Assembly (NCBI GenBank): GCA_046086425.1
Contig: JBJSXO010000355.1
Location: 1-34,584 of the forward strand
Length of the DNA: 34,584 bases
Source of the DNA: Actinomycetota bacterium
GTDB taxonomy: Bacteria > Actinomycetota > Acidimicrobiia > IMCC26256 > PALSA-555
Direction of reading: 5' to 3'
Below, piece by piece: positions 3,537 to 33,383 of this stretch. A program made the position numbers and the translations under genes. Within the stretch, counting starts at the first letter, position 1. Each line of letters starts with the position of its first letter. The notes under the pieces were generated by a model. That model saw only the letters and a program-made list of their open reading frames with translations, did no database searches and had not been told where the DNA came from.

Positions 3537-4508
3537 GTGGCTCGTGACCCGGTTCGGCTCCGCGACGTCGCCGAGCACGCAGGCGTCACGATCTCCACCG
3601 CCTCCCGCGCCCTGCGCCGGCCGGAGATGGTGCGCGCCGAGACCCGTAGTCGGGTCGAGGAGGCCGCGCGCGTGCTGGGGTACACCCCGAACCGCATGGC
3701 CCAGGCCGTCGTCACCGGTCGGTCGCGCACGATCGTCTTCATGGTCCTCGACCCGACCAACCCGATCTTCGCGATCCTCGCTCGTGCGGCACAGGCCGAG
3801 GCCCGCCAGCGAGCGTTCGACGTGCTCGTCGTCGACTCGATGCTGGACGTCCGACGTGAAGCGCAGTTGCTCGAGCAGGCTCAGCACTACGCCGAGGGCA
3901 TCATCATGTGCATCCCTCAGGGCACCTACCCGCTGGATCCCGACGGCCCACCGATCGTCGCCATCAACCGGCGTCTGCGCGGGTCGCATGCCGTGCTGCT
4001 CGACCAGGCCAACGTGATCGAGCAGCAGCTGGCGCATCTCGTCGCGCTGGGCCACCGGCGCATCGCCTATCTCGACGGGCCCGACCAGTACTGGGCCGCC
4101 GTCGAGCGCCGGCGCCACGCCGAGCGGCTCGCCGGGGACCACCCGATCGAGATCATCGGCCCGGTGCTCCCGACCTTCCCCGGCGGGTACGGGGCAGTGG
4201 ACCGGATCGACCCTGCGGTCACCGCCGTCATCGCCTTCACCGACCACCAGGCCGCCGGGGTGGTCGTGCGTCTGGCCGAGCTCGGCCGTCGGGTACCCGC
4301 AGAGGTGAGCGTGATCGGGTCCAACGATCTGCCGCTCGCGCGCATGTACAACCCGCCGCTCACCACCATGCACACACCCTTCGACGCGATGGGCCGGGCC
4401 GCGGTGAGTCTGCTCCTCGACGCGGTGGACGGCGCGAACGGAGGCTGGATCACCCAGGTCATGACGTCCGAGCTGGTGGTGCGGAGCTCGACCGCGGCGC
4501 GCCGGTGA
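3537..4508 (+). CDS. LacI-family transcriptional regulator
   Basis: N-terminal HTH LRDVAEHAGVTISTASRAL, hinge LGYTPNRMAQA, and C-terminal VPAEVSVIGSND...PPLTT sugar-binding domain. Confidence 0.95.
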   Translation: MARDPVRLRDVAEHAGVTISTASRALRRPEMVRAETRSRVEEAARVLGYTPNRMAQAVVTGRSRTIVFMVLDPTNPIFAILARAAQAEARQRAFDVLVVDSMLDVRREAQLLEQAQHYAEGIIMCIPQGTYPLDPDGPPIVAINRRLRGSHAVLLDQANVIEQQLAHLVALGHRRIAYLDGPDQYWAAVERRRHAERLAGDHPIEIIGPVLPTFPGGYGAVDRIDPAVTAVIAFTDHQAAGVVVRLAELGRRVPAEVSVIGSNDLPLARMYNPPLTTMHTPFDAMGRAAVSLLLDAVDGANGGWITQVMTSELVVRSSTAARR

Positions 4509-5353
4509 CGCCGCAGCCACCGGCCTGGGCACCGGGGGATCCGCTGCTCGAGGGATCCGTCGCGCTCGTCGCCGGAGGAGGCCGCGGCATCGGTGCGGCG
4601 ACCAGCCGGATCCTCGCCGCCGCCGGCGCCACCGTGGCCGTCCTCGACCAGGAGGCCGAACGCGCCGAGGCCGTCACTGCGCAGCTGCGGGCCACCGGCG
4701 CGCACGCGATCCCCGTGGTGTGCGACCTCCGCGACGAGGACGCGAGCGCCGCGACCGTGACGCGCGTGGTCGACGAGCTCGGGGGCGTGGACGTGCTCGC
4801 CAACGTGGTCGGCGGGATGATGCACGAGGCCGAGTGGCGACACCTCGAGCACTGGACGACCGACGAGTGGGACCGGGTCCTGCACCTCAACCTGCGCTAC
4901 GTGTTCTGGCTGTGCCGTGCGGTGCTGCCGTCGATGGTCGCGCGCGGAGGCGGCTCGATCGTGAGCGTCACGTCGATCAGCGGCGTCTTCGGGGCGCCCA
5001 ACCACTCGGCGTACGGCGCGGCGAAGGCGGGCCTGATCCACCTGACCAAGACCCTGGCCGTGGAGTACGGCCGCCACGGCGTGCGGGTCAACGCCGTGTC
5101 GCCGGGCGCGGTCGTGACCCCGGCCATGGCCACCACGATGTCCCCCGAGCGCCAGGCCACCCTGGCCGCCGCCACCCCGCTGCAGCGACCGGGCTCGGCC
5201 GAGGACATCGCCCGGGCGGTGCTGTTCTTCGCGTCACCCCTCGCCGGCTACGTGACCGGGCAAATGCTGCTGGTCGACGGCGGCATCGGGTCGAAGTTCC
5301 CCCTCGGCGGCGTCGGCACACACGGCTCGGAGGCGGCGCTGCCGACCGGGTGA
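4505..5353 (+). CDS. Short-chain dehydrogenase/reductase (SDR)
   Basis: GTG 4505 overlaps the LacI stop (GTGA). Motifs AGGGRGIG, YGAAK, VRVNAVSPG and YVTGQMLLVDGG; 282 aa. Confidence 0.92.
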   Translation: MTPQPPAWAPGDPLLEGSVALVAGGGRGIGAATSRILAAAGATVAVLDQEAERAEAVTAQLRATGAHAIPVVCDLRDEDASAATVTRVVDELGGVDVLANVVGGMMHEAEWRHLEHWTTDEWDRVLHLNLRYVFWLCRAVLPSMVARGGGSIVSVTSISGVFGAPNHSAYGAAKAGLIHLTKTLAVEYGRHGVRVNAVSPGAVVTPAMATTMSPERQATLAAATPLQRPGSAEDIARAVLFFASPLAGYVTGQMLLVDGGIGSKFPLGGVGTHGSEAALPTG

Positions 5354-8702: not shown

Positions 8703-9573
8703 ACGCGTCACCGGGTTCGACCGACGGCACGCCACCGTCGACCAGCGCGTTCGTCGGCACGGTCATCGGCTCGAGCGCGGCGAACGGCCGGCCCGGCGGC
8801 ACCCACACCTGCGCGAACGGGTACGCCGCGTCGGCGTGCACCGCCACGGCGGCATCGTCGGTCTCGAGCGCGAGCACCCGTCGGCGCCCGAGGGCGAACA
8901 GGTCGTCGACGGTGCGCCGGCCGATGGGCGCGGACTCCGGGGCCGCCGGGCGGCGATCGCCGGTCGGGAGGCCGCGGGCGTCGAGGAGCAGGTGGTCGCG
9001 CCGGGGCAGGGTCAGACGCCACCGGGACCGGGGCGCGCCCGGCACCCGGAGGTAGGGGTGCCACCCGAAGGCGATCGGGACCGGGCGGGCCCCGGTCGGC
9101 ACCACCGTCGTGCGCACCGCGAGGCGACCGGGCCGCAGCCCGACCCGCAGCTCGATCCGGTGCGGGAACGGGAACGCCGGGGTGTCGACGGCGATCACGG
9201 CCCGCAGCCGCGCGTCCCCGGACCGGGTGGTGGCTTGCTCCACCCGCCACCCCGGCGCGCCGACCAGGACCCCGTGGATCGGCAGCCCGTTGCCGTCGGT
9301 GTGGATCCGCCGTCGGCTCAGGTCGACCGCGACACGGCCGACGCGGTAGCGGCGGCGACCGAGCCGGTTGGCCCACGGGGCGAGGAGCGGGAGCCCGAGG
9401 GTGTGCCCGGCCCGCAGCGCGTCGGGGCCGCCCGGGGCGGCCAGGTACTCCCGGCCTTCGTGGCGCAGCGACACCCCGGTCATGCCCAGCCCGGGCAGGA
9501 AGGTGACGGCGGTGGGCCCGGACCGCAACCGCAGGGCCGGCTCGCCCCGCCAGCGGGTCTCCTCGATCGCCAT
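8671..9573 (-). CDS. Aldose 1-epimerase (galactose mutarotase-like) family protein
   Basis: LLAPWANRL, PIHG, FGWHPY and FAALEPMT motifs; overlaps the GH15 3' end convergently. Confidence 0.85.
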   Translation of the reverse strand: MAIEETRWRGEPALRLRSGPTAVTFLPGLGMTGVSLRHEGREYLAAPGGPDALRAGHTLGLPLLAPWANRLGRRRYRVGRVAVDLSRRRIHTDGNGLPIHGVLVGAPGWRVEQATTRSGDARLRAVIAVDTPAFPFPHRIELRVGLRPGRLAVRTTVVPTGARPVPIAFGWHPYLRVPGAPRSRWRLTLPRRDHLLLDARGLPTGDRRPAAPESAPIGRRTVDDLFALGRRRVLALETDDAAVAVHADAAYPFAQVWVPPGRPFAALEPMTVPTNALVDGGVPSVEPGDAFSASYAVVLR

Positions 9574-9627
9574 GGCCCCAGCATGCACGCGTCGCGCCCG
9601 GGTGCCGGGATGTGGTCAACTGCCCGG

Positions 9628-11049
9628 GTGCGCTCCCTCTGGATCCTCGCCGTCGACCCGGTCCCCTGGGCCCGGGCCCAGATGGCGTTCACGCTCGCCA
9701 CCCACATCGTCCTGGTGCCGCTCGGCGTGGCCTGGGCCTTCATGGCCCTCGTGGCCAACTACAAGGGCATCAAGCACGACGACCCCGACGCCCTCCGGCT
9801 CGCCCAGCGCTGGTCGAAGTACATGGCGGTCACCTTTGCGGTGGGGGCCGTGACCGGGACCGTCCTCAGCTTCGAGTTCGGCCTGCTCTGGCCCAACTTC
9901 ATGAACCGGTTCGGGGCCGCGTTCGGCATCCCGTTCGCAGTCGAGGGCCTCTTCTTCTTCACCGAGGCGATCTTCCTCGCCATCTACATCTACGGGTGGA
10001 AGCGGCTGCGGCCCTGGCCTCACTTCTGGACCGGCGTCCCCATCGTGATCGCCGGCATCGGCGGCACCGTCGCGGTGGTCTCGGCCAACGCCTGGATGAA
10101 CGAGCCGGGCGGGTTCACACTGAACGACGCGGGCCGGGTCGTAGACGTGGACCCACTCGCGGTGATCTTCAACAAGGCGATGCCGCTGCAGTCCCTGCAC
10201 ATGCTCATCGCCGCGTACATGGTGGGCGGGTTCCTGATCGCGTCGGTGTACGCAGTCTCGCTCCTGCGCGGTAAGCGCGACCGCTACCACCGCCTCGGCT
10301 TCCTCATCCCGTTCACGATCGCCGCGATCGCCACGCCGGTGCAGATGTTCGTGGGCGACGAGCTTGCGCGATGGGTCTACAACAACGAGCCGATCAAGTT
10401 TGCGGCGATCGAGCTCGTCCCCAAGACGAGCACCGACGTGCCCGAGACGCTGCTCGGCCGCCTCGACCGCGACGGCAACGTGGTGGGCGGGATCCCCATC
10501 CCGGGCTTCGCGTCGATCCTGTCCGACCCGTCCGAGGGCACCGCCACCGAGATCCAGGGTCTCGACGCGTTCCCCGAGGAGGATCGGCCCACGATCCGTG
10601 AGGTCAACACGGTGCACCTCGCGTGGGACGTGATGATCGGCCTCGGCACTGCGTTGCTCCTGCTCGCCGCGTGGTTCGGCGTCGTCTGGTGGCGTCGACG
10701 CGACCTCCCCAAGACCCGCTGGTTCCTTCGTGCCGCTGCGGTGGCCGGGGTCGGCGCACTCCTCGCGATGGAGGCGGGCTGGGTGGTGACCGAGGTGGGT
10801 CGCCAGCCCTGGATCGTCTTCGACTACATGAAGGTCTCCCAAGCCGCGACCGAGAACACCGGCGTATGGCTGACGTTCCTCGTGATCGCCGCCGTATACG
10901 CGGTGGTCGCGGTCACCCTGGTGCTCGTCCTGCGCCTCATGGCCCGGCGCTTTGCGGCCGCCGACGAGCACGAGCACGAGGGCGGCCCGTACGCGCCCCC
11001 AGAGCCCCCCGACCGGATGCCCGCACGCGAGGAGGTGGGCGCCCGGTGA
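9628..11049 (+). CDS. cydA: Cytochrome bd ubiquinol oxidase subunit I
   Basis: ARAQMAFTLATHI, FAVGAVTGTVLSFEFG, EGLFFFTEAIF, LHMLIAAY and GWVVTEVGRQPW. Start uncertain (GTG 9628 or ATG 9610). Confidence 0.93.
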   Translation: MRSLWILAVDPVPWARAQMAFTLATHIVLVPLGVAWAFMALVANYKGIKHDDPDALRLAQRWSKYMAVTFAVGAVTGTVLSFEFGLLWPNFMNRFGAAFGIPFAVEGLFFFTEAIFLAIYIYGWKRLRPWPHFWTGVPIVIAGIGGTVAVVSANAWMNEPGGFTLNDAGRVVDVDPLAVIFNKAMPLQSLHMLIAAYMVGGFLIASVYAVSLLRGKRDRYHRLGFLIPFTIAAIATPVQMFVGDELARWVYNNEPIKFAAIELVPKTSTDVPETLLGRLDRDGNVVGGIPIPGFASILSDPSEGTATEIQGLDAFPEEDRPTIREVNTVHLAWDVMIGLGTALLLLAAWFGVVWWRRRDLPKTRWFLRAAAVAGVGALLAMEAGWVVTEVGRQPWIVFDYMKVSQAATENTGVWLTFLVIAAVYAVVAVTLVLVLRLMARRFAAADEHEHEGGPYAPPEPPDRMPAREEVGAR

Positions 11050-12083
11050 GCGAGGCGGTCGCCGTCGTGCTGTTCCTGGGGATCACCGCGTACGCAGTGT
11101 TCGGCGGTGCCGACTTCGGGGCGGGGTTCTGGGACCTCGTCGCCGGGGGCGCGACGCGCGGCGCACGGCCCCGATCGGTGGTCAACCACGCGATCGGACC
11201 GGTGTGGGAGGCGAACCACGTGTGGCTGATCTTCGTGCTCGTGGTGTTGTGGACGGCGTTCTCCGAGGCGTTCGCGTCGATCATGCTCACGCTGTTCGTC
11301 CCCCTGTCGATCGCCGCGCTCGGGATCGTCCTGCGCGGCTCGAGCTTCGCGTTCCGAAAGGAGGTCACCCGGGTCTCGTCGCAGCGCAACTTCGGCGTCG
11401 CGTTCGCGACCTCATCGGTGCTGGTCCCGTTCTGCTTCGGCGCGGTGGCCGGGGCGATCGCCTCGGGCCGGGTCCCCGCCGGGGGCGTCGCCGGTGACAC
11501 CTGGGCGAGCTGGCTCAGCCCCACGGCGATCCTCGGAGGCGTCCTCGCCGTGGTCGTCTGTGCCTACCTCGCGGCCGTCTACCTGGTGTGGGACGCGCAC
11601 CGCTTCGCCGGACCCGACATGGAGGAGTACTTCCGCCGGCGGGCCCTGCTGACGGCCGGGGCCGCCGGGCTCGTCGCCGTCGTCGGCATCTTCGTGCTGC
11701 GCGCCGACGCCGAGTACGTGTTCGGCCGGCTCACCGGCGTCGCGCTGCCGCTGGTGATCCTCTCCGGGCTCTGCGGACTCGGCTCGATCGCGCTGCTGGT
11801 GCGCCGGAGCCACCGCCTCGCGCGATTGCTCGCCGTGGGCGCCGTCGCGAGCGTGATCTGGGCGTGGGGCGTGGCCCAGTGGCCTTACCTGCTGCCCGAG
11901 ACGATGAAGGTCGCCGCGAGCGCGGCTCCCGACGCGACCCTTGCGGCGGTGCTCGTGGTGTTCGTGCTCGCCGCGCTGATCATCGCGCCTTCGCTCGGGC
12001 TCCTCTACTACCTCGACCAGCACAGCCTGCTCGCCGCCGACGGCGCCGAACCCGGCGGCGGCCTGCCCCCGAGCACTCCCTGA
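11046..12083 (+). CDS. cydB: Cytochrome bd ubiquinol oxidase subunit II
   Basis: GTGA overlap with cydA; GGADFGAGFW and IGPVWEANHVWLIF; multi-TM. Confidence 0.92.
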   Translation: MSEAVAVVLFLGITAYAVFGGADFGAGFWDLVAGGATRGARPRSVVNHAIGPVWEANHVWLIFVLVVLWTAFSEAFASIMLTLFVPLSIAALGIVLRGSSFAFRKEVTRVSSQRNFGVAFATSSVLVPFCFGAVAGAIASGRVPAGGVAGDTWASWLSPTAILGGVLAVVVCAYLAAVYLVWDAHRFAGPDMEEYFRRRALLTAGAAGLVAVVGIFVLRADAEYVFGRLTGVALPLVILSGLCGLGSIALLVRRSHRLARLLAVGAVASVIWAWGVAQWPYLLPETMKVAASAAPDATLAAVLVVFVLAALIIAPSLGLLYYLDQHSLLAADGAEPGGGLPPSTP

Positions 12084-12188: not shown

Positions 12189-13490
12189 ATGCGGCGGGCC
12201 ACCGCCCTGACCCTGGCCCTGGCCCTCTCCGCCGCCGCCCTGCTCGTCCTCCCGGCCGGCGCGGCGTCGGGCGACCACTACACGGCCGACGCCGACGAGT
12301 CGCTCGCCGACATCCAGGCCTTCTGGGCCGAGGCGCTACCTGCGACCTACGGGCGCACGTACCGACCGATCCCGACCACCCGCGTGCACCCCTACTCGTC
12401 GGACGACCCGCCTCCGGGATGCGGGACGAACCGGCCCACTCCGTACCGGGAGGTCGCGGGCAACGCCTTCTACTGCACCGAGGGCGACTCCATCGCCTAT
12501 GACGTCGAGCGCCTCGTCCCGGCACTGCGGGAGCGGTACGGCGACGTGGCCGTGGGCCTCGTGCTCGCCCACGAGATGGGCCACGCGGTCCAGGCTCGCG
12601 TCGGTGCGCCCGACGACGCGTTCGTGACGATCGAGCTCCAGGCCGACTGCTTCGCCGGCGCATGGGCCGCGCACGTCGCCGCGGGCGGCAGCGACCTCCG
12701 CCTCTCCGAGGACGACATCGACCGCGCGATGGCGGGGTTCCTCGACCTGCGCGACCCGTCGGGAACCGACGGTCGCACCGACGGGGCCCACGGCAACGCG
12801 TTCGATCGTGTGAGCGCGTTCCAGGACGGCCTCACCGACGGCGCCACTGCGTGCCGGGGCTACGAGCAACGCCCACCTGAGGTCACCGAGTCGCCCTTCG
12901 TCTCCGCACGGGACCAGGCCGTCAACGGCGACCCGCCACTCGACGAGTCGCTGCCCCTGCTCACCAAGAGCCTCGACGCCTTCTGGTCGGCCACCGCCAA
13001 GCGCTACGCAGACGCGCCCGAGTTGGTGGCCGCGCCGTCGGGCGTCTCGTGCCCCCGCGGGTCAGACGGCGGCGTGCTCAGCGACTCCGTGATCTACTGC
13101 GCGGCCACCCACCGCATCGTGTACCGGCCCCGGGCCCTCCAGCAGGCGTCCGACGAGATCGGCGACATGGGCGCTGGTGTGTTCGTGGCCGCAGCGTGGG
13201 CGTCGGCGGTCCAGCACGCGGTGGGGTACCCGATCGGGACCGGACGGGCGCGTGCGGTCTCCGACTGTCTCACCGGCGGCTGGGCCGGGGCGGTCGAGCG
13301 GGGCACCGCCGCGCCGGCGGGCACCCGGGGCGCGATCACCTTCTCGCCCGGTGACCTCGACGAGATCGTCGCGGCCTTCGTGGCGACCGACAAGACGCCG
13401 TCGGCCGTCGACCGCGGCTCGGTGTTCGACCGGATGCGGGAGTTCCGCCGCGGCTTCGACGGCGGTCCGTCCGCCTGTGTCAGCGCCTGA
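12189..13490 (+). CDS. Secreted neutral zinc metallopeptidase (YpfJ/LpqM-like)
   Basis: Signal peptide MRRATALTLALALSAAALLVLPAGAA; NAFYC, HEMGHAVQ (HExxH), ELQADCFAG and AHG. A degenerate second repeat lacks HExxH. Alternative start at 12147. Confidence 0.85.
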   Translation: MRRATALTLALALSAAALLVLPAGAASGDHYTADADESLADIQAFWAEALPATYGRTYRPIPTTRVHPYSSDDPPPGCGTNRPTPYREVAGNAFYCTEGDSIAYDVERLVPALRERYGDVAVGLVLAHEMGHAVQARVGAPDDAFVTIELQADCFAGAWAAHVAAGGSDLRLSEDDIDRAMAGFLDLRDPSGTDGRTDGAHGNAFDRVSAFQDGLTDGATACRGYEQRPPEVTESPFVSARDQAVNGDPPLDESLPLLTKSLDAFWSATAKRYADAPELVAAPSGVSCPRGSDGGVLSDSVIYCAATHRIVYRPRALQQASDEIGDMGAGVFVAAAWASAVQHAVGYPIGTGRARAVSDCLTGGWAGAVERGTAAPAGTRGAITFSPGDLDEIVAAFVATDKTPSAVDRGSVFDRMREFRRGFDGGPSACVSA

Positions 13491-13638
13491 CCGGCTCCGA
13501 GGGCCGGCCGAGCCATCGGTGCGCGACGCCCTCGGCGCGGTGACCCACGGGCCGTGAGAATACGATGCCGGGGGCCAGTGCGGGCCGCCACGCCGTGACA
13601 CCGCACCGGCACCGTCCCGACCGACCCCCGGGGAGCCG

Positions 13639-14418
13639 ATGACCGACGACCGCTTCTCTCTCGACGGTCGGGTCGCCATCGTCACCGGGGGCGGGACCGG
13701 GATCGGCCGGGCCACCGCCGGGGTTCTCGCGCAGCACGGGGCCCACGTGGTGCTCGCCGCGCGCCGGGAGTCGCTGCTGGAACGCACCGCCGGTGAGATC
13801 GAGGCCCGGGGGCGCCGCGCCCTCGTCGTTCCGACCGACGTGACCGACCCGGCCCGGTGCGAGGACCTCGTGGACGCCGCGGTCCGGGCCTTCGGCCGGC
13901 TCGACGTGCTCGTCAACAACGCCGGGGGGGCGCTCAAGAAGCCGCCCGAGGACTGGACCGTGCGCGACTGGCACCAGGTCGTCGACCTCAACCTCGCCAG
14001 CGTCTGGTTCCTCGCCCGTCCCGCGGCGCGGGCGATGATCGCCGGGGGCGCCGGGGCGATCGTGAACATCTCGTCGGGCGCGAGCTTCCTCGCGCTCCCG
14101 GACGTCGCACCGTACGGCGCGGCCAAGGCCGGGATGAACAGCCTCACCCGATCGCTCGCCGCCGCGTGGACACCACACGGCGTGCGGGTCAACGCCGTGG
14201 CGTGCGGCGCCGTGCGCACCGAGGGTTACGGCACTTCGACGGCGCGCGAGGGCGTCCCCGACGACACCGTCCTCGGACCGGGCAACGCGATGGACCGGGT
14301 CGGCGAGCCCGACGAGATCGCCCACGCAGTGCTGTTCTTCGCGTCGGACGCGTCGAGCTACTGCTCGGGTCAGACGCTGTGGGTCAACGGTGGTCCCAAG
14401 GCCCCTACCCTCGTCTGA
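13639..14418 (+). CDS. Short-chain dehydrogenase/reductase (SDR)
   Basis: TGGGTGIG, LVNNAG, YGAAK, VRVNAVACG and SGQTLWVNGG. Confidence 0.93.
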   Translation: MTDDRFSLDGRVAIVTGGGTGIGRATAGVLAQHGAHVVLAARRESLLERTAGEIEARGRRALVVPTDVTDPARCEDLVDAAVRAFGRLDVLVNNAGGALKKPPEDWTVRDWHQVVDLNLASVWFLARPAARAMIAGGAGAIVNISSGASFLALPDVAPYGAAKAGMNSLTRSLAAAWTPHGVRVNAVACGAVRTEGYGTSTAREGVPDDTVLGPGNAMDRVGEPDEIAHAVLFFASDASSYCSGQTLWVNGGPKAPTLV

Positions 14419-14450
14419 CCTTCCGGCACGCGTCTGGTAGGAAGACCGGC

Positions 14451-15596
14451 ATGAGCGACCAGCCGATGCGCGACTTCGCGGCCAACGCGCCGATGCCCGA
14501 GATGGGCGAGACGCCGTTCACGCCTCTCACCAAGGCCCTCTCGGAGTGCCGCGTCGCGATCGTCACCACCGCTGCGCTGCACACGCCCGACGCGGAGGGC
14601 TTCACGCCCGACGACGTGTCGTTTCGCGTGCTGCCCGCCGACCGGCGTGATCTCGTCCTCGGGCACTGGAGCCCGAACTTCGACCGTTCCGGCTTCGTCG
14701 CCGATCTCGACGTGGTGTACCCGATCGACCGGCTCGACGAGCTCGCGGCCGACGGAACCATCGGGAGCGTGGCCGCCCACCACTACTCCTTCGCAGGAAA
14801 CCAGGAGGACACGCTCGCCGGGATCCGCCTCGACACCGGACCGGCCGTGGCTCGCCGCCTGCGCGACGAGGACGTCGACGTCGTCCTGCTCACGCCCGTC
14901 TGACCGCTCTGCTCGCGCACCGTGTGTGTGCTCGCTCGCGTGCTCGAGGCGCATGGCCTCGCCACCATTGCGCTGATCTCGGTCCGCGGCGTCGCCGAGC
15001 GGCTCCCACCGCCGCGGGGCCTGTACTGCGAGTTCCCGCTGGGGCGGCCGTTGGGGCGGCCCGACGACCCCGAGTTCCAGCGGGCCGTGCTCCGGCGGGC
15101 CTTCGCCCTGCTGGAGCGCCACGACGGCCCGGTCCTCGAGGACTACCCGGTCGTGATCACATCGGACACGAGCGCGCTCGCGTGCCCGATGCCACCGCGC
15201 TTCGACGCGAACGTCCCCGAGGCCGTGGACGAGGCCCGGGGGCTACGCGCCGCGTACGACCGCACGCTCGCCCGCCGGGGCGTCACCTCCATCGGCCGCG
15301 TGCTCGACGCCGACCAGGTGCCCGACGCACTCGGGGTCCTTGCTGCGATCGCCGAGGGCGCCGACTGGAAGGACGCCGGCTTCGTCGGGGACCCCGTGCA
15401 GACCTGTCACGACATCCGCACCTACTACGAGGAGGCGGCTGCCGCGCTCGTGGACACGGTCCCGGCCGGGCAGGGGGAGTCGTGGTTCTACGAGCAGACC
15501 GCGGCCGGCCACACGATGCTCGCCGCACGCGCGCGCATGCGCGAGCAGGGCGCGCCGGTGATGATCTGGCTCTACATGGCCCGCGCCACCCGCTGA
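14451..15596 (+). CDS. Selenoprotein B-like protein (glycine/betaine/sarcosine/D-proline reductase selenoprotein B, PrdB/GrdB-like) with in-frame UGA (Sec151); 381 aa
   Basis: ATG 14451, TGA 14901-14903 and the downstream ORF 14922-15596 share one frame. Read-through gives DVVLLTPV-U-PLCSRTVCVLARVLEAHGLAT (UxxC). PrdB-like RVAIVTTAALH, DLDVVYPIDRLDELAADGTIG and FPLGRPLGRPDDPEFQRAVL motifs flank the UGA. Confidence 0.85.
14901..14931 (+). promoter_or_regulatory. Putative bacterial SECIS element
   Basis: Stem GCGCAC (14915-14920) pairs with GUGUGC (14926-14931). Loop CGUGU starts 18 nt after the UGA, with G at loop position 2. Folded by eye only. Confidence 0.55.
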
Positions 15597-15653
15597 ACCG
15601 GGCGGGCCCGGCCGAGTAGCGGCACTACCGGCGGGGCGACTTCACTCACAGCG

Positions 15654-16871
15654 ATGGACTTCGACGAGACCCCCGAGGAGATGGCGTTCCGCAGGGAATG
15701 CCGGGCCTTCCTGGAAGCCCACGCGCCCGCCCACGCCGACGACTCCGCCCCGGTCTCGGTCTACATCCGCGACCCGGCCGAGGAGCGCCGTCACCTGGCG
15801 CGTGCCCAGGCCTGGCGGGCCGAGAAGTACGACCACACCTGGGCCGGGATCACCTGGCCGGCCGAGTACGGCGGGCGGGGCGGCACACCCGGCCAGGACG
15901 CCATCTTCCGCAGCGAGGAGGCCCGGTTCCTCAGCACCGGCGGCGTGTTCGCGGTCGGCATCGGGATGGCCGGCCCGACGATCATCGCCCACGGCACCGA
16001 CGCGCAGAAGCAGCGCTTCCTGAAGCCGATGCTGCGCGGGGAGGAGGTCTGGTGCCAGCTGTTCTCGGAGCCCAACGCCGGCAGTGACCTCGGTGGCCTG
16101 TCCACGAGCGCGGCACGAGACGGTGACGAGTGGGTCGTGAACGGACAGAAGGTCTGGAACTCGGGTGCGCACTACTCCGACTGGGGCATCCTGCTGGCGC
16201 GCACCAACCTGGACGCCCCGAAGCACCGCGGCATCACCTACTTCCTCGTCGACATGCACTCGCCCGGCATCGAGGTGCGTCCGCTCCGGCAGATCACCGG
16301 GGCAGCCCACTTCAACGAGGTGTTCCTCGACGACGTGCGCATCCCCCACGCGCACGTGCTCGGGGAGGTCGACGGCGGCTGGGGCCCGATGATGACCACG
16401 CTCGCCACCGAGCGCACGCTGATCGGGAGCTCCCCGCGGAACGCGTTCCCGGCGACGATCGCGCTCGCCCGTCGGATGGGCGTGGCCGACGACCCCGTGA
16501 TGCGCCAGCGGCTGGCCCAGAGCTACACCCGCACCCGGATCCTCGAGTACCTCGGCTACCGCGTGCGGACGGCGGCCACCAAGGGCATCGCGCCGGGACC
16601 GGAGAGCTCGGTGATCAAGCTGTTCCTGTCGCAGCACCTGTCGCTCGAATCCGACATGCTCCTCGCGATGCTCGGGCCCCACGCCACGCTCTGGGACGCC
16701 GACGCGCCCGACGACGGGCGCGGGCAGATGGACTTCCTCGGCCAGTGGAACCCGAAGATCGGCGGGGGCACCGACCAGATCCAGCGCAACACGATCGGCG
16801 AGAAGGTCCTCGGCCTCCCGTCCGAGCCGCGGGTCGACAAGGGCATCCCGTTCCGCGAGATCCCGCGGTGA
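15654..16871 (+). CDS. Acyl-CoA dehydrogenase (FadE-like)
   Basis: WPAEYGGRG, WCQLFSEPNAGSDL, VNGQKVWNS, FNEVFLDDV and IGGGTDQIQRNTIGEKVLGLP. Confidence 0.95.
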   Translation: MDFDETPEEMAFRRECRAFLEAHAPAHADDSAPVSVYIRDPAEERRHLARAQAWRAEKYDHTWAGITWPAEYGGRGGTPGQDAIFRSEEARFLSTGGVFAVGIGMAGPTIIAHGTDAQKQRFLKPMLRGEEVWCQLFSEPNAGSDLGGLSTSAARDGDEWVVNGQKVWNSGAHYSDWGILLARTNLDAPKHRGITYFLVDMHSPGIEVRPLRQITGAAHFNEVFLDDVRIPHAHVLGEVDGGWGPMMTTLATERTLIGSSPRNAFPATIALARRMGVADDPVMRQRLAQSYTRTRILEYLGYRVRTAATKGIAPGPESSVIKLFLSQHLSLESDMLLAMLGPHATLWDADAPDDGRGQMDFLGQWNPKIGGGTDQIQRNTIGEKVLGLPSEPRVDKGIPFREIPR

Positions 16872-18061
16872 CCAGCGGTCACGACGGCGTCCGGGTCGCG
16901 GTGGGCCTGACCCGGCGGGCCGGCGGGCGGGTGCGGCGGACCGCCACGGTGACCTCACCGGCGCTGGGCGCCCCGGACCTGTGGGTCGAGGTCGACGAGG
17001 CCCACGCCGCCGAGGTCACGGACCGGGCCGACCCGTTCCTGCTCCTCACGCTCACACTGGCCATGCGGGAGGGCCGGGACCTCACGGTCACCGGGGCCCC
17101 GGTCGACGGGGAGCTGCTGCGCCGCCTGGTCGAGTTCCAGCGCATCTGGCACGCCTGGTTCGACCTGACGCCGGTGGAGGTCCACGCCGAGGCGAGCACC
17201 ACCCGCGGCGACCGCGACGCTGCGGTCGTCGCGTTCTCGGGGGGCGCGGACTCTGCGTTCAGCGCGTGGTCCCACACGGGCGGTCGCGGCCGGCAACCGC
17301 TACGGGGCGCGATGATGATCCACGGGATGGACGTCCCACTGTCGGACCCCGAGGGCTTCGCCCGGGCGATGGGCCGCGCTCGCCGGATGACCGACAGCCT
17401 GGACCTCGACCTCACCGTGGTGTCCACCAACGCGTGGACGCTGCCCGTGCCGATCAGGCAGTACACGGGGATGGGGGTGGCCGCGGCCCTCCACGTCCTC
17501 GGGGGCCGCTACGGGGCGGGCCTGATCCCCTCCACCGCGACCTACCGCGGTCTCGTCGTGCCGCTCAACAGCAGCCCGGTCAGCGACTGGCTGCTCGGGG
17601 GTGACGGATTCGCCATCGTCCACGACGGCGCGGCCGCGAACCGGTTCGAGAAGCTCACGGCCCTCTGCGCCTGGCCCGAGGCCATGGAGTCCCTCCGCGT
17701 CTGCCTCGTCGACCCGCGCCACGACCGCAACTGCGGCACCTGCCACAAGTGCATGATGACCCTCGCCGCCTTCCGGGTGCTCGGCGTCGACGCGCCGTGC
17801 TTCGACGCCGTGCCCTCGGCTGCGCAGTTCACCGACTGGGCCCGGCGCTGGCCGAGTGGCCGGTACCACCGGCAGGAGGGCCTGGTGCTGGTCGACGCGG
17901 CCCGGGAGCGCGGGGTGGACGAGCCCTGGGTGCGGGCGTTGCGCAACCGGATCCGGGTCGCGCAGCTCAAGGACGGCGTGCGCGCCGCGTGGCCCGGTCT
18001 GGCCGACGGCGTCGCGTCGGCCCATCGGCGGGTGCGGGCAATGGGCTCCCCCCGGGGCTGA
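16868..18061 (+). CDS. QueC-like PP-loop (adenine nucleotide alpha-hydrolase) protein with Cys-rich Zn site
   Basis: GTGA overlap with the ACAD stop; FSGGADS PP-loop; LRVC-x8-CGTCHKC; 397 aa with an N-terminal extension not present in canonical QueC. Confidence 0.75.
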   Translation: MTSGHDGVRVAVGLTRRAGGRVRRTATVTSPALGAPDLWVEVDEAHAAEVTDRADPFLLLTLTLAMREGRDLTVTGAPVDGELLRRLVEFQRIWHAWFDLTPVEVHAEASTTRGDRDAAVVAFSGGADSAFSAWSHTGGRGRQPLRGAMMIHGMDVPLSDPEGFARAMGRARRMTDSLDLDLTVVSTNAWTLPVPIRQYTGMGVAAALHVLGGRYGAGLIPSTATYRGLVVPLNSSPVSDWLLGGDGFAIVHDGAAANRFEKLTALCAWPEAMESLRVCLVDPRHDRNCGTCHKCMMTLAAFRVLGVDAPCFDAVPSAAQFTDWARRWPSGRYHRQEGLVLVDAARERGVDEPWVRALRNRIRVAQLKDGVRAAWPGLADGVASAHRRVRAMGSPRG

Positions 18062-20615
18062 CCCGACCACCCGCGCCCGCTCGGCGCAGGCACTCGTCGA
18101 GCCGGGCCGCGAGCACGTGCACGTGGGGCTCACCGATCATCGAGTCGTGGTCGCCCGGCACCTCGATGCACTCGATCCCCGCGGTCGCCACCCGGGCCCA
18201 CCCCAGGTCGGCCGATCCGGCCGTGCGGCGGACGGGCTCGGCGGAGAACACCGTCACCAGCGCAGGTGCGGGCCCGGGGGTGAACCCCCGCTCACGGGCG
18301 AACGCGGCCGCCCAGTCCAGGACCGCTCCGGTCCCGGGGAGGTGCTCGACCGGCCGGGGCGGGTTCCGCCCGAAGAGCTGGCGGACCCGCCACGCCACGA
18401 TGCTCGGGCCCCGGCGACTGCACAGCTTGCGCACCCGGTACCAGAGGGAGTGCCGCTGCGCCCACCGCGCCCGCACCAGATCGGGGTGGATGGCGTCGGC
18501 GATGCCGACGAACTCGACCGCGTGACCCTCGGCGGCGAGCCGGCACGCCGTCTCGTACGCCACCATCGCACCGAGCGAGTGCCCGAACAGGCGGTACGGA
18601 CCGTCGGGGGTCACCTCCCGCACCAGACGCGCGCAGGTCGTGGCGATCTCCTCGATCGAGCCGGCTGCGTCCGCGGGCCCGTGCATCGACGGCATCCACA
18701 CCCCGAAGACCGGCTGGTCCCGGCCCAGGGTCGCCGCGAGGTGGCGGAGCGTCACCACCGAGCCGGCCCGCATCACGCAGAAGAGCGGCGGCCGGGTTCC
18801 GTCGGGCTGCACCGGGACCACGAACGACGCCGACGGGTCCGCCGGCTCGGCCCGCAGCAGCGCCGCCATCCGGCGCACGGTCGCGCCGTCGAAGAACACG
18901 GTGGCCGGCAGCGGCCGGCCGAACGCCCGCTCGAGGTCGAGGAGCAGCTCGGTCGCGTGGAGCGAGTCACCCCCGAGATCGAAGAAGTCGGCGTCGATGC
19001 TCGGGAGCTCGTCGTCACCGAGCACCCGCTGCCAGATCGCGGCGATCTCCCGCTCGAGGTCGTCGGCGGGGGCGGCGCCCGGAGCCGCGCGCGTCGACGC
19101 GGTGAACCCGAGCCGGTCGGCGAGACCCGTCCGGTCGAGCTTGCCGGTCGCGCCCCGCGGGATCTCGTCGACGGCGACCACGCGTCGCGGCACCTTGTAG
19201 GGCGCGAGCCGCTCGGCCGCGTACCGGCGCAGCTGCGGTGCGGTGACGGTGGCGTTCGCCTCCAGTACGACCGCTGCGCCGACCTCCTCCCCCAACCGCG
19301 GATGGGGCACCGCGAACGCCACTGCGTGCTTCACCTGGGGATGGGTCAGCAGCACGTCGTCGATCGCGCGCGGGGCCACCTTCTCGCCGCCTCGGTTGAT
19401 GATCTCCTTGAGGCGACCGGTGAGCGTGACGACGCCGTCGGCGTCGACGAGCCCCTGGTCGCCAGTCCGGAACCAGCCGTCCTGGAACGCCGCCGCCGTG
19501 GCCTCGGGCGCGTCGAGGTACTGCGTCGCGACCGACGGCCCCCGGATCGCCAACTCCCCGACCGCACCCGGGGTGAGAACGCGCCCGTCCTCACCGAGGG
19601 CCACGACCTCGCAGCCGACCGCGCGGCCCACCGACCCTGGCGTGCGCACACCGGGTGGGCGGGCGTTGCTCGCGATCTGGTGCGCGGCCTCGGTCATCCC
19701 GTAGGCCTCGATCACCGGCACCCCGAGCACCCGCTCGAGCTCCTCCATCAGTCTCGCGGGCAACGGGGCCGACGAGGAGCGGACGAAGGTGAGCGACGAC
19801 CGGATCGGTCGATCCGCGGTTGCGCGCGGACGGCTGACGTCGAGCATCGCCTGGTGGATGGTGGGCACCGCGGTGTACCAGGTCGGTGACATCGTGTCGA
19901 TCCACTCCCACACCGACGCCGCGTCGAATCCCGGTGCGCAGATCACGCTGCCGCCCTGGCTCAGCGGCGCGAGCAGTCCGGCCACGAGGCCGTGGATATG
20001 GAACAGCGGCATTACGTCGAGACACCGGTCCCGGGGCGTGAGCCCGAGTGCGGCGGCCACGTTGGCGGCCGAGGCCACGAGCGCGTCCTCGCACAACGGT
20101 ACGAGCTTCGGGCGGCTCGTGGTCCCCGAGGTGAAGAGCAGGAGCGCAGCGTCACCCCGGTCACGCGATGGCGCAGGGGCCGGCGCGTCGTCGGGCACGA
20201 CCAGGTCGAAGGCCCCGGCCCCCGCACCGGGAACCAGCTCGAGCACCGGGATGCGCAGCGCCGTCGCCGCGTCGCGAGCGGCCGTGTCGTGACCCTGCTG
20301 GACGATCACGGCGCGCGCCCCCAGGGCCTCGAGATCACGCGCGTGCTCCGCCTGGGGTCGGTCGGTCGCGAGGGGGGCGCACACTGCAGCCGCCGTCACG
20401 CCGAGGAACGCCACCGCGAGGTCGGCCCCGTTGGGCAGGGCCAGCGCAACCGGCGCGTCGGGCCCCAGACCGGCGGCGCCGAGGCGGTCCCCCACCCCCA
20501 CCACCTGATCGAACAGCTCGCGGTGCGTCGCGTCGCGACGTCCCGGCGCCAGGAGCGCAGGTTGGTCACCGGACGACGTCGCGCCGGCGCGCAGCAACTC
20601 GAGGAGCGACGCCAT
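17967..20615 (-). CDS. NRPS-like A-T-TE enzyme (acyl-CoA-ligase-type adenylation domain + carrier protein + thioesterase)
   Basis: A domain: FTSGTTSRPK, MPLFHIHG, EAYGMTE, FRTGD, GRLKEIINRGGEK, PRGATGKL. Carrier: FFDLGGDSL. TE: FGHSLG and VPGDHDSM. ATG 20615; 882 aa. Confidence 0.9.
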   Translation of the reverse strand: MASLLELLRAGATSSGDQPALLAPGRRDATHRELFDQVVGVGDRLGAAGLGPDAPVALALPNGADLAVAFLGVTAAAVCAPLATDRPQAEHARDLEALGARAVIVQQGHDTAARDAATALRIPVLELVPGAGAGAFDLVVPDDAPAPAPSRDRGDAALLLFTSGTTSRPKLVPLCEDALVASAANVAAALGLTPRDRCLDVMPLFHIHGLVAGLLAPLSQGGSVICAPGFDAASVWEWIDTMSPTWYTAVPTIHQAMLDVSRPRATADRPIRSSLTFVRSSSAPLPARLMEELERVLGVPVIEAYGMTEAAHQIASNARPPGVRTPGSVGRAVGCEVVALGEDGRVLTPGAVGELAIRGPSVATQYLDAPEATAAAFQDGWFRTGDQGLVDADGVVTLTGRLKEIINRGGEKVAPRAIDDVLLTHPQVKHAVAFAVPHPRLGEEVGAAVVLEANATVTAPQLRRYAAERLAPYKVPRRVVAVDEIPRGATGKLDRTGLADRLGFTASTRAAPGAAPADDLEREIAAIWQRVLGDDELPSIDADFFDLGGDSLHATELLLDLERAFGRPLPATVFFDGATVRRMAALLRAEPADPSASFVVPVQPDGTRPPLFCVMRAGSVVTLRHLAATLGRDQPVFGVWMPSMHGPADAAGSIEEIATTCARLVREVTPDGPYRLFGHSLGAMVAYETACRLAAEGHAVEFVGIADAIHPDLVRARWAQRHSLWYRVRKLCSRRGPSIVAWRVRQLFGRNPPRPVEHLPGTGAVLDWAAAFARERGFTPGPAPALVTVFSAEPVRRTAGSADLGWARVATAGIECIEVPGDHDSMIGEPHVHVLAARLDECLRRAGAGGRVSPGGSPLPAPADGPTRRRRPDRATRRARRP

Positions 20616-20625
20616 CGGGAGGAGT

Positions 20626-21606
20626 CTACGAACGGGTCCGGAGACGGCGGCGCAGATCCTCGAGCCGCCCGGTCGCGTCCCCCACTGCTGCGGCCGGGTC
20701 GGCGCCGTGGCGCAAGCGCCACGCCGGGAGCCGGGCCAGCGCGCCGCATACGCCGAACAGGTCGGGACGGACATCGGCGTCCACGAGCGCGAGGCTGGCC
20801 CCGAGCAGCTCGCGCATCACGTCGGGACCGGGCAGCGGGGTGACCCCCGGGCCGTCGGCCGAGCCACCCGAGGTGACGGCGACCGCGACCACCGGGCGCT
20901 CCCCGGAGGCGAGCGTCCCGGGCGGGAGCTCGACGCGCTGGCGCAGGTCCTCGGGCACGCCCCGGCCCCCGGCGATCGACCCGGCGACCACGTCGGCTGC
21001 GACCGCCACGGGTCGGGGTACGCCGCGCGCGAGCACGCGGTCGTCCCGACGCTCGAGCAGCACCGCGTCGTCGGCGAGCACGGGCCAGCCGAGCAGGTGC
21101 GCAGCGTACGCAAGTGTCGACTTCCCCGTCCCCGTGCCGCCCACCACGAGCAGCACTGCGTCGTCGACGACCAGCGCCGCACCGTGGAGCAGGTGGCGCC
21201 CCCGCCGGGCGAGCACGTGGGTGAGGCAGACCAGCGCGACGAACCGGAACTCCCGAGCGAGGCCGGGCGCGTCACCCCCCACCACGATGGCGTGCGGCGT
21301 GCACCGCGCGGTGAGCCCGGCGGAGCTGCGGACCGCGAGCTCCCCCGGGCCCGTCCACCAGAGGTCGACGTAGTCGAGGGCACGATCGGGGTCACGGTCC
21401 GGCACCGCAACCGCCGCCGCGTCGAAGCGAAGGTGGCACGCCGGCGCGCCGGCCACAGTGGCTGCGTGACGGAAGAGCGACGCCCCCGCGTCGGCCCGCA
21501 CCCCGTCGGCGGCACCGAGCCCGACGGGGACACCGCCGACCTCCACCACGGTGCCGGCGCGTACGTCGGCCGCGTCGACCTCCGCGACGGAGGGCGGTCC
21601 GCTCAC
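20626..21606 (-). CDS. HPr kinase-like P-loop kinase (RiPP/lasso-cluster type)
   Basis: LLHGAAL...VGGTGTGKSTLA...VLADDAVLL. GTG 21606 overlaps the upstream stop (GTGA); 326 aa. Confidence 0.85.
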   Translation of the reverse strand: MSGPPSVAEVDAADVRAGTVVEVGGVPVGLGAADGVRADAGASLFRHAATVAGAPACHLRFDAAAVAVPDRDPDRALDYVDLWWTGPGELAVRSSAGLTARCTPHAIVVGGDAPGLAREFRFVALVCLTHVLARRGRHLLHGAALVVDDAVLLVVGGTGTGKSTLAYAAHLLGWPVLADDAVLLERRDDRVLARGVPRPVAVAADVVAGSIAGGRGVPEDLRQRVELPPGTLASGERPVVAVAVTSGGSADGPGVTPLPGPDVMRELLGASLALVDADVRPDLFGVCGALARLPAWRLRHGADPAAAVGDATGRLEDLRRRLRTRS

Positions 21607-31432: not shown

Positions 31433-33379
31433 TCAGGTGAAGGTGTAGTCGGCGGGGTCGGCGGCGCGGGTCCAGGTCCAGTAGGTGGGGATGGGCCACG
31501 GTGACAGGGTCCAGACCTCGCCACGGGCGTTCTTGTAGTGCGAGTGGGTAACCGACGGGTGGGCCCAGACCATCTGCGAGATCTCGTGCTGGTAGCGCTC
31601 GACGTACCGGTCGTGCGCGTCCGTGCGCACCTCGATCGTACGGTGACCGCTGCGGAGCGTCTGCCCGATGGCATCCATGACGTAGTGCACCTGGCACTCG
31701 GACTGGAAGATCAGGCTGCCGCCGTGCGCCAGGTTGGTCCCCGGGCCGTAGACGCAGAACAGGTTCGGGAAGTCGGGGACCGTGATGCCGAGGAACGCCG
31801 ACGGCCGGTCGCCCCACTGGTCGCGCAGGCTGCGCCCGCCCCGGCCGGTGATGTGCATCGGCCACAGGAACTCGGTGTGGCGGAAGCCCGTCGCGTAGCA
31901 GATGACGTCGGCCGGGTGGTGGGTGCCGTCCTCGGTGACGACGCCGTCGGCCACGATGCGGGCGATCCCCGTGCGCACCAGCTCCACGTTGTCCTTCTTC
32001 AGGCAGGTCAGCCACGACCCGTTGTCCTGGAGCGTGCGCTTGCCGGTGGCCGGGTAGTCGGGCATGACCTTCGCGAGCAGGTCGGGATCGTCCCCCACCT
32101 GGCTCTCGATCCAGCCGGTGAACAGCTGGCGGGTGATCTCGTTGCCCGCACTCACCGCCTGTCCCTGCCCGTCGTCGTACGCGGGGTCGACGCGCGAGTT
32201 CTCGATCGACAACCCGGCGCCCGGATAGAAGGTCAGGAAGCGGAACCACCGCGCGTAGAAGGGCACGTGGCGCATGGCCCACCGCTCACCGTCGGGCACC
32301 GGGAGGTGGTAGCCGGGGTTCGGGAACATCCACTGTGCCGTGCGCTGGAACACCGTGAGCCGCTCCACCTGGTCGGCGATCGTCGGTGCGATCTGGAAGC
32401 CGCTCGCGCCGGCACCCACGAGGGCGAAGCGTGTCCCCCGATGGTCGACGGAGTGGTCCCAGCGGGCCGAGTGGAACGACGGGCCGGCGAACTCGTCCCG
32501 GCCGGGGATGTCGGGGAGCTTCGGCCGGTTCAGCGAGCCCACCGCGCTGATCACGAACCGAGCGTCGATCGTGTCCGTGACGCCGTCGGCGGTGCGCACC
32601 GCGACCGACCAAAGGCCGGTCGTCTCGTCGTAGGTCGCGTCGGTGACCTCGGTCCCGAAGCGGATCCGCGGGCGGAGCGCGTGGTGGTCCATCACCCGCA
32701 CGAAGTACTCCTGGAGCTCGGGCTGCTGCGAGAAGTACTCCGTCCAGTGGTCGGCCGGCTCGAACGAGTAGCAGTAGAAGTGGCTGCCGACGTCGACACG
32801 CGCACCGGGGTAGCGGTTCTCGTACCAGGTGCCCCCGGGACCGGCGTTCTTCTCGACGATCGTGAACGGCAGCCCGGCCTCCTGGAGCCGGATCCCAGCC
32901 AGCAACCCCGCCTCGCCGCAGCCGATGACCACCACCGGCGAGTCGGCCTTCACGTCGTCGGGGATCTCCGCCCCCCAAGTGATCGCCCCGGAGTCGGCGC
33001 CGTCGAGGTGGAGGTCGTCCACGAACATGGGCTCCACCGCGCGGTCGACCTCGGCGCAGGCCAGGTAGCTCATCATCTCGTGGAGCACCTCGGCCGACGG
33101 CGCGGGCGGGAGCACGCAGCCGCCGTCGCGGTACGCGGCCAGCGCCGGGAGCGCCCGCCGGCGCGCCTCGGCCTTGGTGTCCACGTCGAGGTAGCCCTGG
33201 TACTCGTTGAGGAACAGCCCGGCCGGGCGGATGTCGCCACGGACCCACGCGGGATCGCCGGTCACGTGGACCATCGCGCACATCAACGCCGGGATGCTCA
33301 CGTCCTCGAGGGCTGCGGCGATGGTCGCGTCGTCGTCGGTGAACGGGCGTCCTGCGTGCGGGTTGCGGGTGGTGGCCAT
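31433..33379 (-). CDS. Baeyer-Villiger/flavin monooxygenase (4-hydroxyacetophenone monooxygenase-like)
   Basis: VIGCGEAG, GGTWYENRYPG, BVMO fingerprint FAGPSFHSARWD, VGAGASG, ATGF and PNLFCVYGP; long N-terminal extension. Alternative start at 33397. Confidence 0.9.
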   Translation of the reverse strand: MATTRNPHAGRPFTDDDATIAAALEDVSIPALMCAMVHVTGDPAWVRGDIRPAGLFLNEYQGYLDVDTKAEARRRALPALAAYRDGGCVLPPAPSAEVLHEMMSYLACAEVDRAVEPMFVDDLHLDGADSGAITWGAEIPDDVKADSPVVVIGCGEAGLLAGIRLQEAGLPFTIVEKNAGPGGTWYENRYPGARVDVGSHFYCYSFEPADHWTEYFSQQPELQEYFVRVMDHHALRPRIRFGTEVTDATYDETTGLWSVAVRTADGVTDTIDARFVISAVGSLNRPKLPDIPGRDEFAGPSFHSARWDHSVDHRGTRFALVGAGASGFQIAPTIADQVERLTVFQRTAQWMFPNPGYHLPVPDGERWAMRHVPFYARWFRFLTFYPGAGLSIENSRVDPAYDDGQGQAVSAGNEITRQLFTGWIESQVGDDPDLLAKVMPDYPATGKRTLQDNGSWLTCLKKDNVELVRTGIARIVADGVVTEDGTHHPADVICYATGFRHTEFLWPMHITGRGGRSLRDQWGDRPSAFLGITVPDFPNLFCVYGPGTNLAHGGSLIFQSECQVHYVMDAIGQTLRSGHRTIEVRTDAHDRYVERYQHEISQMVWAHPSVTHSHYKNARGEVWTLSPWPIPTYWTWTRAADPADYTFT

Positions 33380-33383
33380 GGCC

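Follow-up and report, generated by a model that had tools for sequence, protein, structure and literature searches.

A predicted two-domain selenoprotein related to the D-proline reductase subunit PrdB and apparently orphaned from Stickland genes in Acidimicrobiia

We analysed a stretch of 34,584 nucleotides (nt) from an Actinomycetota bacterium (GenBank assembly GCA_046086425.1, contig JBJSXO010000355.1; Acidimicrobiia, IMCC26256, PALSA-555), hereafter called the window, which harbours a 381-codon gene interrupted by one in-frame TGA at codon 151 (Table 1). An earlier note, made from the sequence alone, had proposed that two open reading frames (ORFs) of this region are a single frame broken at the position of a catalytic residue, and that they code for a cryptic selenoprotein related to PrdB and GrdB but orphaned from Stickland genes. 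The single frame is borne out by the ORF map obtained with genetic code table 11, in which the ORFs 13857..14903 and 14922..15596 lie in one frame split at the TGA, and by translation with TGA read as selenocysteine (Sec, U), which gives 381 residues with this codon as the only internal TGA. Gene calling with table 11 cuts the gene into a 150-codon N-terminal part and a 224-codon C-terminal part. Codon 151 lies in the motif LLTPV-U-PLC-SRT, in which the codon of Cys154 occupies 14910-14912. Since TGA serves as the terminal stop of this gene too, recoding has to be context-dependent. The gene is present in one copy in its own genome, and tblastn and HMMER matches in related genomes cover query residues 1-381, across the TGA.

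Table 1. Features of the locus, with positions in the window
Feature	Position	Strand	Remarks
Predicted selenoprotein coding sequence, complete	14451..15596	+	381 codons and TGA stop
PrdB/GrdB-like alpha/beta domain, residues 20-222	14508..15116	+	contains U151-x-x-C154; from NCBIfam and Pfam profiles
UGA codon 151, predicted to be decoded as Sec	14901..14903	+	U of the U-P-L-C motif
SECIS-like hairpin	14911..14935	+	from covariation and frozen synonymous sites
C-terminal all-helical domain, residues 236-381	15156..15593	+	from alignments and model
Cytochrome bd subunits I and II	within 8836-12083		
Short-chain dehydrogenase/reductase (SDR)	13639-14418	+	ends 32 nt before the selenoprotein gene
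Acyl-CoA dehydrogenase	15654-16871	+	starts 57 nt past the selenoprotein gene
Long ORF without Pfam family at E <= 1e-6	16879-17466	-	
Stand-alone nonribosomal peptide synthetase (NRPS)-like protein	17967-20774	-	AMP-binding, carrier domain and thioesterase; 935 residues; ~2.4 kb downstream
Long ORF without Pfam family at E <= 1e-6	20817-21533	-	
Flavin-monooxygenase-like gene	31433-33397	-	
Long ORF without Pfam family at E <= 1e-6	33298-34536	-	

A TGA that is a genuine stop would mean that the locus is a pseudogene, contains a sequencing error or consists of two genes, and public annotation offers some material for this. Gene callers split the gene, and hundreds of ~225-residue fragments named 'hypothetical protein' are present in public records. 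The closest relatives in protein databases (62-85% identity) are all C-terminal fragments of 223-231 residues, which correspond to calls cut at the TGA, and uninterrupted ones, 380-400 residues long, are not met with above 55% identity. Among homologues of that size, the two-domain full-length form is the rule. The TGA-free homologues are contiguous proteins, which speaks against two genes. An orthologue scan with one genome per prokaryotic species yielded 80 loci, each spanning query residues ~3-381 across the stop, with labels that are mostly Acidimicrobiia, Ilumatobacteraceae, Iamiaceae or Microthrix and in two cases Chloroflexota or Dehalococcoidia. TGA is found at the homologous codon in all 81 sequences (the window and the 80 loci), at 55-78% protein identity and with both halves of the gene under purifying selection. 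A stricter motif pattern was matched in 79 of the 80 loci, the miss being L060, which has a Leu-for-Arg variant three residues downstream. From the class as a whole, we also searched an even set of 301 genomes (hereafter the class sample) with a match threshold of E <= 1e-30. It contains 46 genomes with a match, and 39 of the 41 full-length sequences have exactly one TGA, the other two having none.

The same study includes three further freshwater metagenome samples in which contigs extend across the TGA, with no difference listed at this codon; one of these contigs deviates by a single letter, the place of which within its 523 bases is not listed. Together with the 81 orthologues, these contigs argue against two of the possibilities that the earlier note had named as fatal to its proposal, namely a sequencing error and a recent nonsense mutation. 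All four metagenome runs also contain short, unrelated contigs whose match is confined to positions 14851-14889 (39 nt, coding for DVDVVLLTPV); they differ there by 3 mismatches and an insertion of 1 nt behind 14863, and are dissimilar beyond. They are probably conserved parts of other organisms' homologues rather than variants of the gene.

The genome encodes the machinery for Sec decoding, on whose presence the earlier proposal had been made to depend: selA, selB, selD and tRNA-Sec were all found above curated cutoffs. The selA (449 bits) and selB (305 bits) genes adjoin each other on contig C237 and are co-directional, with the end of selA at 1168 and the start of selB near 1205. A selD gene (400 bits) is located on contig C379; it is devoid of in-frame stop, and its product is not itself a selenoprotein in this organism. 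tRNA-Sec is on contig C198, separate from selA and selB, and was recognized both by Rfam (68.7 bits) and by ARAGORN (type SeC, anticodon tca). In the class sample, selA is present in 205 of the 301 genomes and in all 38 genomes that harbour a TGA-form orthologue; genomes flagged as unpublished are counted in the tallies of this sample (G212 throughout, G254 and G275 for selA only). In G255, whose sole copy is a Cys form with the codon TGC, no selA match was found. As a side observation on this single case, 6 of the 8 hairpin pairs described below are still possible in the G255 gene (L104:3614-4741).

Downstream of the TGA, the earlier note had noticed a hairpin resembling a selenocysteine insertion sequence (SECIS), and comparison between species shows this element to be real. 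It begins 8 nt past the UGA codon and consists of two outer pairs (14911-14912 with 14934-14935), an inner 6-bp stem (14915-14920 with 14926-14931) and an apical loop (14921-14925). Numbered from the T of the TGA as 1, these are the pairs 11-35 and 12-34, the stem 15-20 with 26-31 and the 5-nt loop 21-25. The loop reads CGUGA in 61 of the 81 sequences and CGUGU in 18, including the window. Over 78 distinct sequences, 99.4% of the 624 cells are paired, as compared with 1.6-72% in controls with a slid 3' arm, and neither the covariation score nor the share of paired cells was reached by any of 500 shuffles. At the pair 18-28, C-G (47 sequences) alternates with U-A (29) and U-G (2), and a mismatch never occurs. 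The switch joins a synonymous change of an Arg codon (CGC/CGU) to a change between Val and Thr codons across the loop. The same region is frozen at synonymous sites: the four-fold degenerate third positions of codons 155, 157, 158 and 160 have an entropy of zero, the mean over the gene being 1.46 bits (201 columns), and no other part of the gene is as constrained as codons 155-162. Minimum-free-energy folding of the single 81-nt stretch gave no better result than shuffled sequences (z = -0.27). Because this DNA is G+C-rich, the hairpin is visible by between-species comparison only. An Rfam search of positions 14700-15200 returned no match at E values up to 10, and no model fits the element.

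In keeping with a single polypeptide, the AlphaFold2 model of the whole chain (51-sequence alignment) is one compact body, with a mean predicted local distance difference test (pLDDT) value of 95.7 and a predicted template-modelling score (pTM) of 0.93, and it is confident across the junction between the two called ORFs. The conserved TGA, the decoding machinery, the hairpin and the independent assemblies together exclude the pseudogene, sequencing error and two-gene readings at the sequence level, and we give almost no credence to a TGA that acts as a stop. On these sequence data, the gene is a genuine selenoprotein gene mis-split by gene callers. Its predicted product is a two-domain protein of 381 residues, probably cytoplasmic.

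Substitutions at codon 151 mostly agree with Sec at this position. In the 28 full-length homologues that lack the TGA, residue 151 is Cys in 21, Gly in 4, Ala in 2 and Ser in 1, and Cys154 is invariant in all of them. The alignment called for in the earlier note has thus given Cys in 21 of 28 TGA-free homologues and TGA in 81 of 81 orthologues. Homologues with a residue other than Cys, which that note had held to be capable of overturning its proposal, do exist in 7 of the 28 cases and complicate the catalytic story; Sec in the protein of the window is not overturned by them. We note that GGA and TCA each differ from TGA by one base, and the substitutions by residues other than Cys may correspond to repairs after the loss of Sec decoding.

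PrdB belongs to an enzyme of strictly anaerobic Stickland fermentation. The N-terminal part of the protein matches the NCBIfam model of PrdB, TIGR04483, with an E value of 3.4e-38 over profile positions 17-219 of 238; its score of 131.4 bits is under half the equivalog cutoff of 300 bits. The Pfam family GRDB (PF07355) is matched over residues 7-148 with 34.5 bits, above its gathering cutoff of 22, and the models of GrdF, GrdH and GrdB give 35-48 bits against cutoffs of 602-800. By these profile scores, the protein is a member of the PrdB/GrdB superfamily, nearest to PrdB and outside the curated D-proline reductase family. In the model, the N-terminal domain has a Rossmann-like three-layer alpha/beta sandwich fold, for which the top structural matches are proteins of the LacI type and SDRs (Z 7-8.7; best Foldseek E value, 2.4e-3), all of them unspecific. 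Sequence searches of the PDB with the single sequence and with a profile gave nothing meaningful (best E values 0.27-0.68).

The resemblance to PrdB of Clostridioides difficile and Clostridium sticklandii extends over essentially the whole length of PrdB, and both systems place Sec in a U-x-x-C motif and recode UGA by means of a downstream hairpin. In PrdB of C. difficile, the Sec residue has the same number, 151, according to the passages on PrdB in PMC11229817. PrdB is a single-domain protein of ~240 residues, described for C. difficile in the same source as a 25.7-kDa monomer, whereas the protein of the window carries an additional domain of ~146 residues. Their hosts differ as well, Acidimicrobiia of oxic habitats here and Stickland-fermenting Firmicutes in the case of PrdB. 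With GrdB, GrdF and GrdH (PF07355; TIGR01917/01918), the protein shares the superfamily domain and the position of the UxxC motif (41 bits with TIGR01918), but the match covers no more of the GrdB profile than its C-terminal half (~200-345 of 347) and the N-terminal domain of GrdB is missing.

Other PrdB-like Sec proteins were observed in the same class. They represent at least one further subfamily, 36-40% identical to the protein of the window, with one TGA in a PGU-PMC-H or PVU-PVC-H motif and without the C-terminal domain. Such short forms are found at L103:3805-4743 (+) and L102 around 3970-4600 (+), and eight rows of the 301-genome sample are of this kind (query span ~20-233); one stops soon past the PrdB-like part, and another has a different Cys-containing tail. 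In addition, the GrdB-like relative P0216 has a weak Pfam match (E 9e-4) to the 'UGSC family' (PF24696), which hints, at the level of sequence, at a distant link between its GrdB-like family and UGSC, the other abundant class of UxxC selenoproteins in the ocean.

The earlier note had described ~130 further residues after the PrdB-like part. The extension exists and is conserved, and it is longer than was thought, at ~146 residues (236-381). Residues 232-256 form an ordered linker with a near-invariant Cys245 (LAC-P-MPPR), followed in the model by seven helices over residues ~257-381. Structure prediction of the C-terminal domain alone, which that note had called for, gave a confident fold (61 sequences; pLDDT 90.1, pTM 0.86). 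Conservation was read from two alignments, the one of 51 sequences and the C-terminal domain set of 61. Glu261 is invariant in both; Cys245, Arg323, Tyr326 and Glu328 are conserved at >= 90% in both; Trp345 is invariant in the C-terminal domain set and at >= 90% in the other, and Tyr325 reaches >= 90% in the C-terminal domain set only. This domain resembles nothing in the collections searched. Pfam searches with the 61 sequences hit nine families with one member each, none of which recurs; a structure search against 48,161 chains gave none at Z 5, the best being 3.9; and the best Foldseek E value was 0.99. We found no case of the domain fused to another one, the single longer match having no Pfam family. 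A protein atlas searched with residues 240-399 of P0003, a natural Cys homologue, returned only 'hypothetical protein' clusters, with scores <= 0.88.

The neighbours named in the earlier note, an SDR upstream and an acyl-CoA dehydrogenase downstream, are in place. Their arrangement around the gene is common only to the nearest relative, L021, as determined by tblastn over the 80 loci; this context is not conserved and therefore says little about function. The NRPS-like protein also is common to the window and L021 (61% identity). Many of the long ORFs without Pfam family may be shadow ORFs, as this DNA has a G+C content above 70%. A scan of positions 13400-17000 for promoters and terminators found none. 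Oxygen-using enzymes are encoded in the window as had been noted, in the form of cytochrome bd and a flavin-monooxygenase-like gene, which fits an oxygen-using host.

We looked for a conserved partner gene by tblastn of the neighbours, ORF clustering and a Pfam census, and nothing was present in more than 15 of the 81 loci. The top neighbour clusters are AMP-binding ligases (15 loci), SDRs (13) and enoyl-CoA hydratases (10), followed by DUF2855 (8), metallo-beta-lactamase fold proteins (7) and acyl-CoA dehydrogenases (6). The Pfam census of the 111 ORFs located <= 600 nt from the gene in the 80 loci gave sulfatase (7), AMP-binding (6), DUF2855 (5), acyl-CoA dehydrogenase (4) and SDR (3). DUF2855 is the sole recurrent neighbour family of unknown function. 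It was considered as an obligate partner and rejected: it is present in 41 of the 301 class genomes but only in 14 of the 38 carriers of the TGA form, and it was not found in the genome of the window or in 5 other genomes of the same genus.

A conventional B subunit of a D-proline, glycine, sarcosine or betaine reductase would need a PrdA- or GrdE-type partner, here encoded elsewhere or in the 18% of the genome that is unassembled. Catalysis by D-proline reductase requires the pyruvoyl group of PrdA, which contacts PrdB through its own C-terminal segment (passages on this enzyme in PMC11229817), and this pyruvoyl group is apparently missing here. Neither a PrdA/GrdE-type partner nor any prd or grd gene occurs in the window, in agreement with the earlier note, and prdA, prdC, prdH or other prd genes were not found as neighbours; the 111 flanking ORFs of the 80 related loci include no Prd or Grd component, no PF09338 protein and no thioredoxin, while grdA, grdC and grdD were not searched genome-wide. 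PF09338 (PrdA/GrdE) had no match in the genome of the window (82% complete) or in five carrier relatives (96-99% complete, three of them single contigs), in a search that lacked a positive control. These results support the view that the gene is orphaned from Stickland genes.

That PrdB is the best family match, and that Joint Genome Institute (JGI) pipelines name homologues 'D-proline reductase (dithiol) PrdB', would favour a conventional subunit, and so would partner searches made without a positive control. The scores well below the PrdB, GrdB, GrdF and GrdH cutoffs, the silence of PF09338 over own genome, relatives and flanking ORFs, and an additional domain for which a 25.7-kDa PrdB has no counterpart all point the other way, and we consider a conventional subunit very improbable. 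We regard the protein instead as a member of a widespread orphan branch of the PrdB/GrdB superfamily, patchy in Acidimicrobiia and also present in records labelled Solirubrobacterales and Chloroflexota, whose hosts are freshwater and marine actinobacteria.

Sec-containing relatives of PrdB in oxic waters have been catalogued before. In the survey of the Sargasso Sea selenoproteome (Zhang et al. 2005, PMC1088965), the third most abundant known family is 'Proline reductase PrdB' (UxxC), with 42 Sec genes; the Global Ocean Sampling (GOS) survey (Zhang and Gladyshev 2008, PMC2398784) counts 235 Sec and 110 Cys forms under pfam07355; and in a later ocean study, proline reductase makes up 6.4% of selenoprotein genes (PMC9402790). 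Like the protein of the window, these are PrdB homologues with Sec in a UxxC motif, assigned to pfam07355 and found in metagenomes of aerobic surface water. They were filed under the Stickland name, and the passages of the two surveys that deal with them are silent on domain architecture, on the lack of PrdA and on hosts. Reviews of 2022 and 2026 (PMC9312934, PMC13188914), in the passages concerned, give the Stickland function only. The ocean 'PrdB' sequences could be members of the two-domain family or shorter, PrdB-only Sec forms. Over the open full-text literature (subscription journals and supplements being outside this scope), we found no paper that sets a two-domain family apart, remarks on the lack of PrdA or assigns a function, and no functional study of PrdB homologues outside Stickland metabolism. 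The claim of a cryptic selenoprotein hence stands as regards a real, mis-split gene; it is less unprecedented than it seemed, as Sec 'PrdB' homologues of oxic waters were catalogued in 2005 and 2008. Sec-containing PrdB homologues in such waters are an already known catalogue entry, and in the literature covered it is the two-domain orphan architecture that is new.

The earlier note had supposed a stand-alone Sec redox enzyme with a substrate of its own. By analogy with its relatives, the protein would most likely be a self-contained selenol/thiol (U151/C154) reductase. SelB and tRNA-Sec would decode UGA-151 as Sec, directed by the short hairpin. From the chemistry of PrdB and GrdB as given in passages of PMC11229817 and PMC13188914, Sec151 may be the nucleophile that attacks an electrophilic atom of the substrate. 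Cys154 would then resolve the selenium adduct, as also suggested by PrdB/GrdB chemistry, giving a selenenyl-sulfide that a cellular thiol system could re-reduce. More speculatively, the helical domain, perhaps together with Cys245, might supply the substrate site as PrdA does in the Stickland enzyme.

A different role for the same residues, in place of substrate-specific C-X bond reduction, would be that of a redox buffer or sensor, for instance an antioxidant enzyme that reduces peroxides, disulfides or sulfoxides, or else a thiol switch, with UxxC acting as in selenoproteins of thioredoxin fold. A UxxC motif with Cys homologues is typical of many thiol-oxidoreductase selenoproteins (Table 3 among the passages of PMC1088965 concerned), there is no conserved metabolic operon, and the genomes, whose habitats are oxic, contain genes for cytochrome bd and flavin monooxygenases. 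That 7 of the 28 TGA-free homologues have lost the redox residue would fit a dispensable protective role, and it is partly for this reason that we grant this possibility some weight. The fold, on the other hand, is a PrdB-like alpha/beta one and not that of thioredoxin; the large conserved helical domain, in which many polar and aromatic residues are invariant, is suggestive of a pocket for a specific ligand; and the family is without attached regulator domain or partner. On balance, we consider a buffer or sensor unlikely. In our assessment, a Sec-decoded, two-domain orphan relative of PrdB that acts as a substrate-specific Sec151/Cys154 reductase, and not as a Stickland subunit, is the probable interpretation.

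Several observations weigh against this interpretation. Some lineages appear, from the alignment, to retain a protein in which position 151 is not occupied by a redox residue (the Gly, Ala and Ser forms). The PF09338 search was silent also in 14 control genomes, and the genome of the window is only 82% complete. The fold match of the N-terminal domain is generic (Z <= 8.7), and the PDB sequence search yielded no PrdB or GrdB structure. Among RNA runs, none is listed as holding the gene. Finally, the mechanism is carried over by analogy from PrdB and GrdB, with a putative substrate and a putative reductant, and the proximity of Cys245 to Sec151 is a guess.

The prominence of 'PrdB' among selenoprotein classes of oxic surface waters since 2005 is odd for an anaerobic Stickland enzyme, and the corresponding passages of those surveys offer no function for it. 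The locus described here represents a concrete member of such proteins, with defined hosts (Acidimicrobiia and relatives), a SECIS element, a two-domain model and a Stickland partner that is apparently missing. For annotation, it indicates that public records systematically truncate the gene at the UGA or else label it as D-proline reductase, the latter probably wrongly. It is conceivable, although we hold it with reserve, that a helical domain of unseen fold replaces PrdA and enables the Sec-dependent reductive cleavage of a bond in a non-Stickland substrate in aerobic actinobacteria of fresh and marine waters. If true, this would represent a new enzyme activity and might explain the abundance of 'PrdB' selenoproteins in oxic waters. 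With the present locus, the question of what such proteins reduce becomes directly testable.

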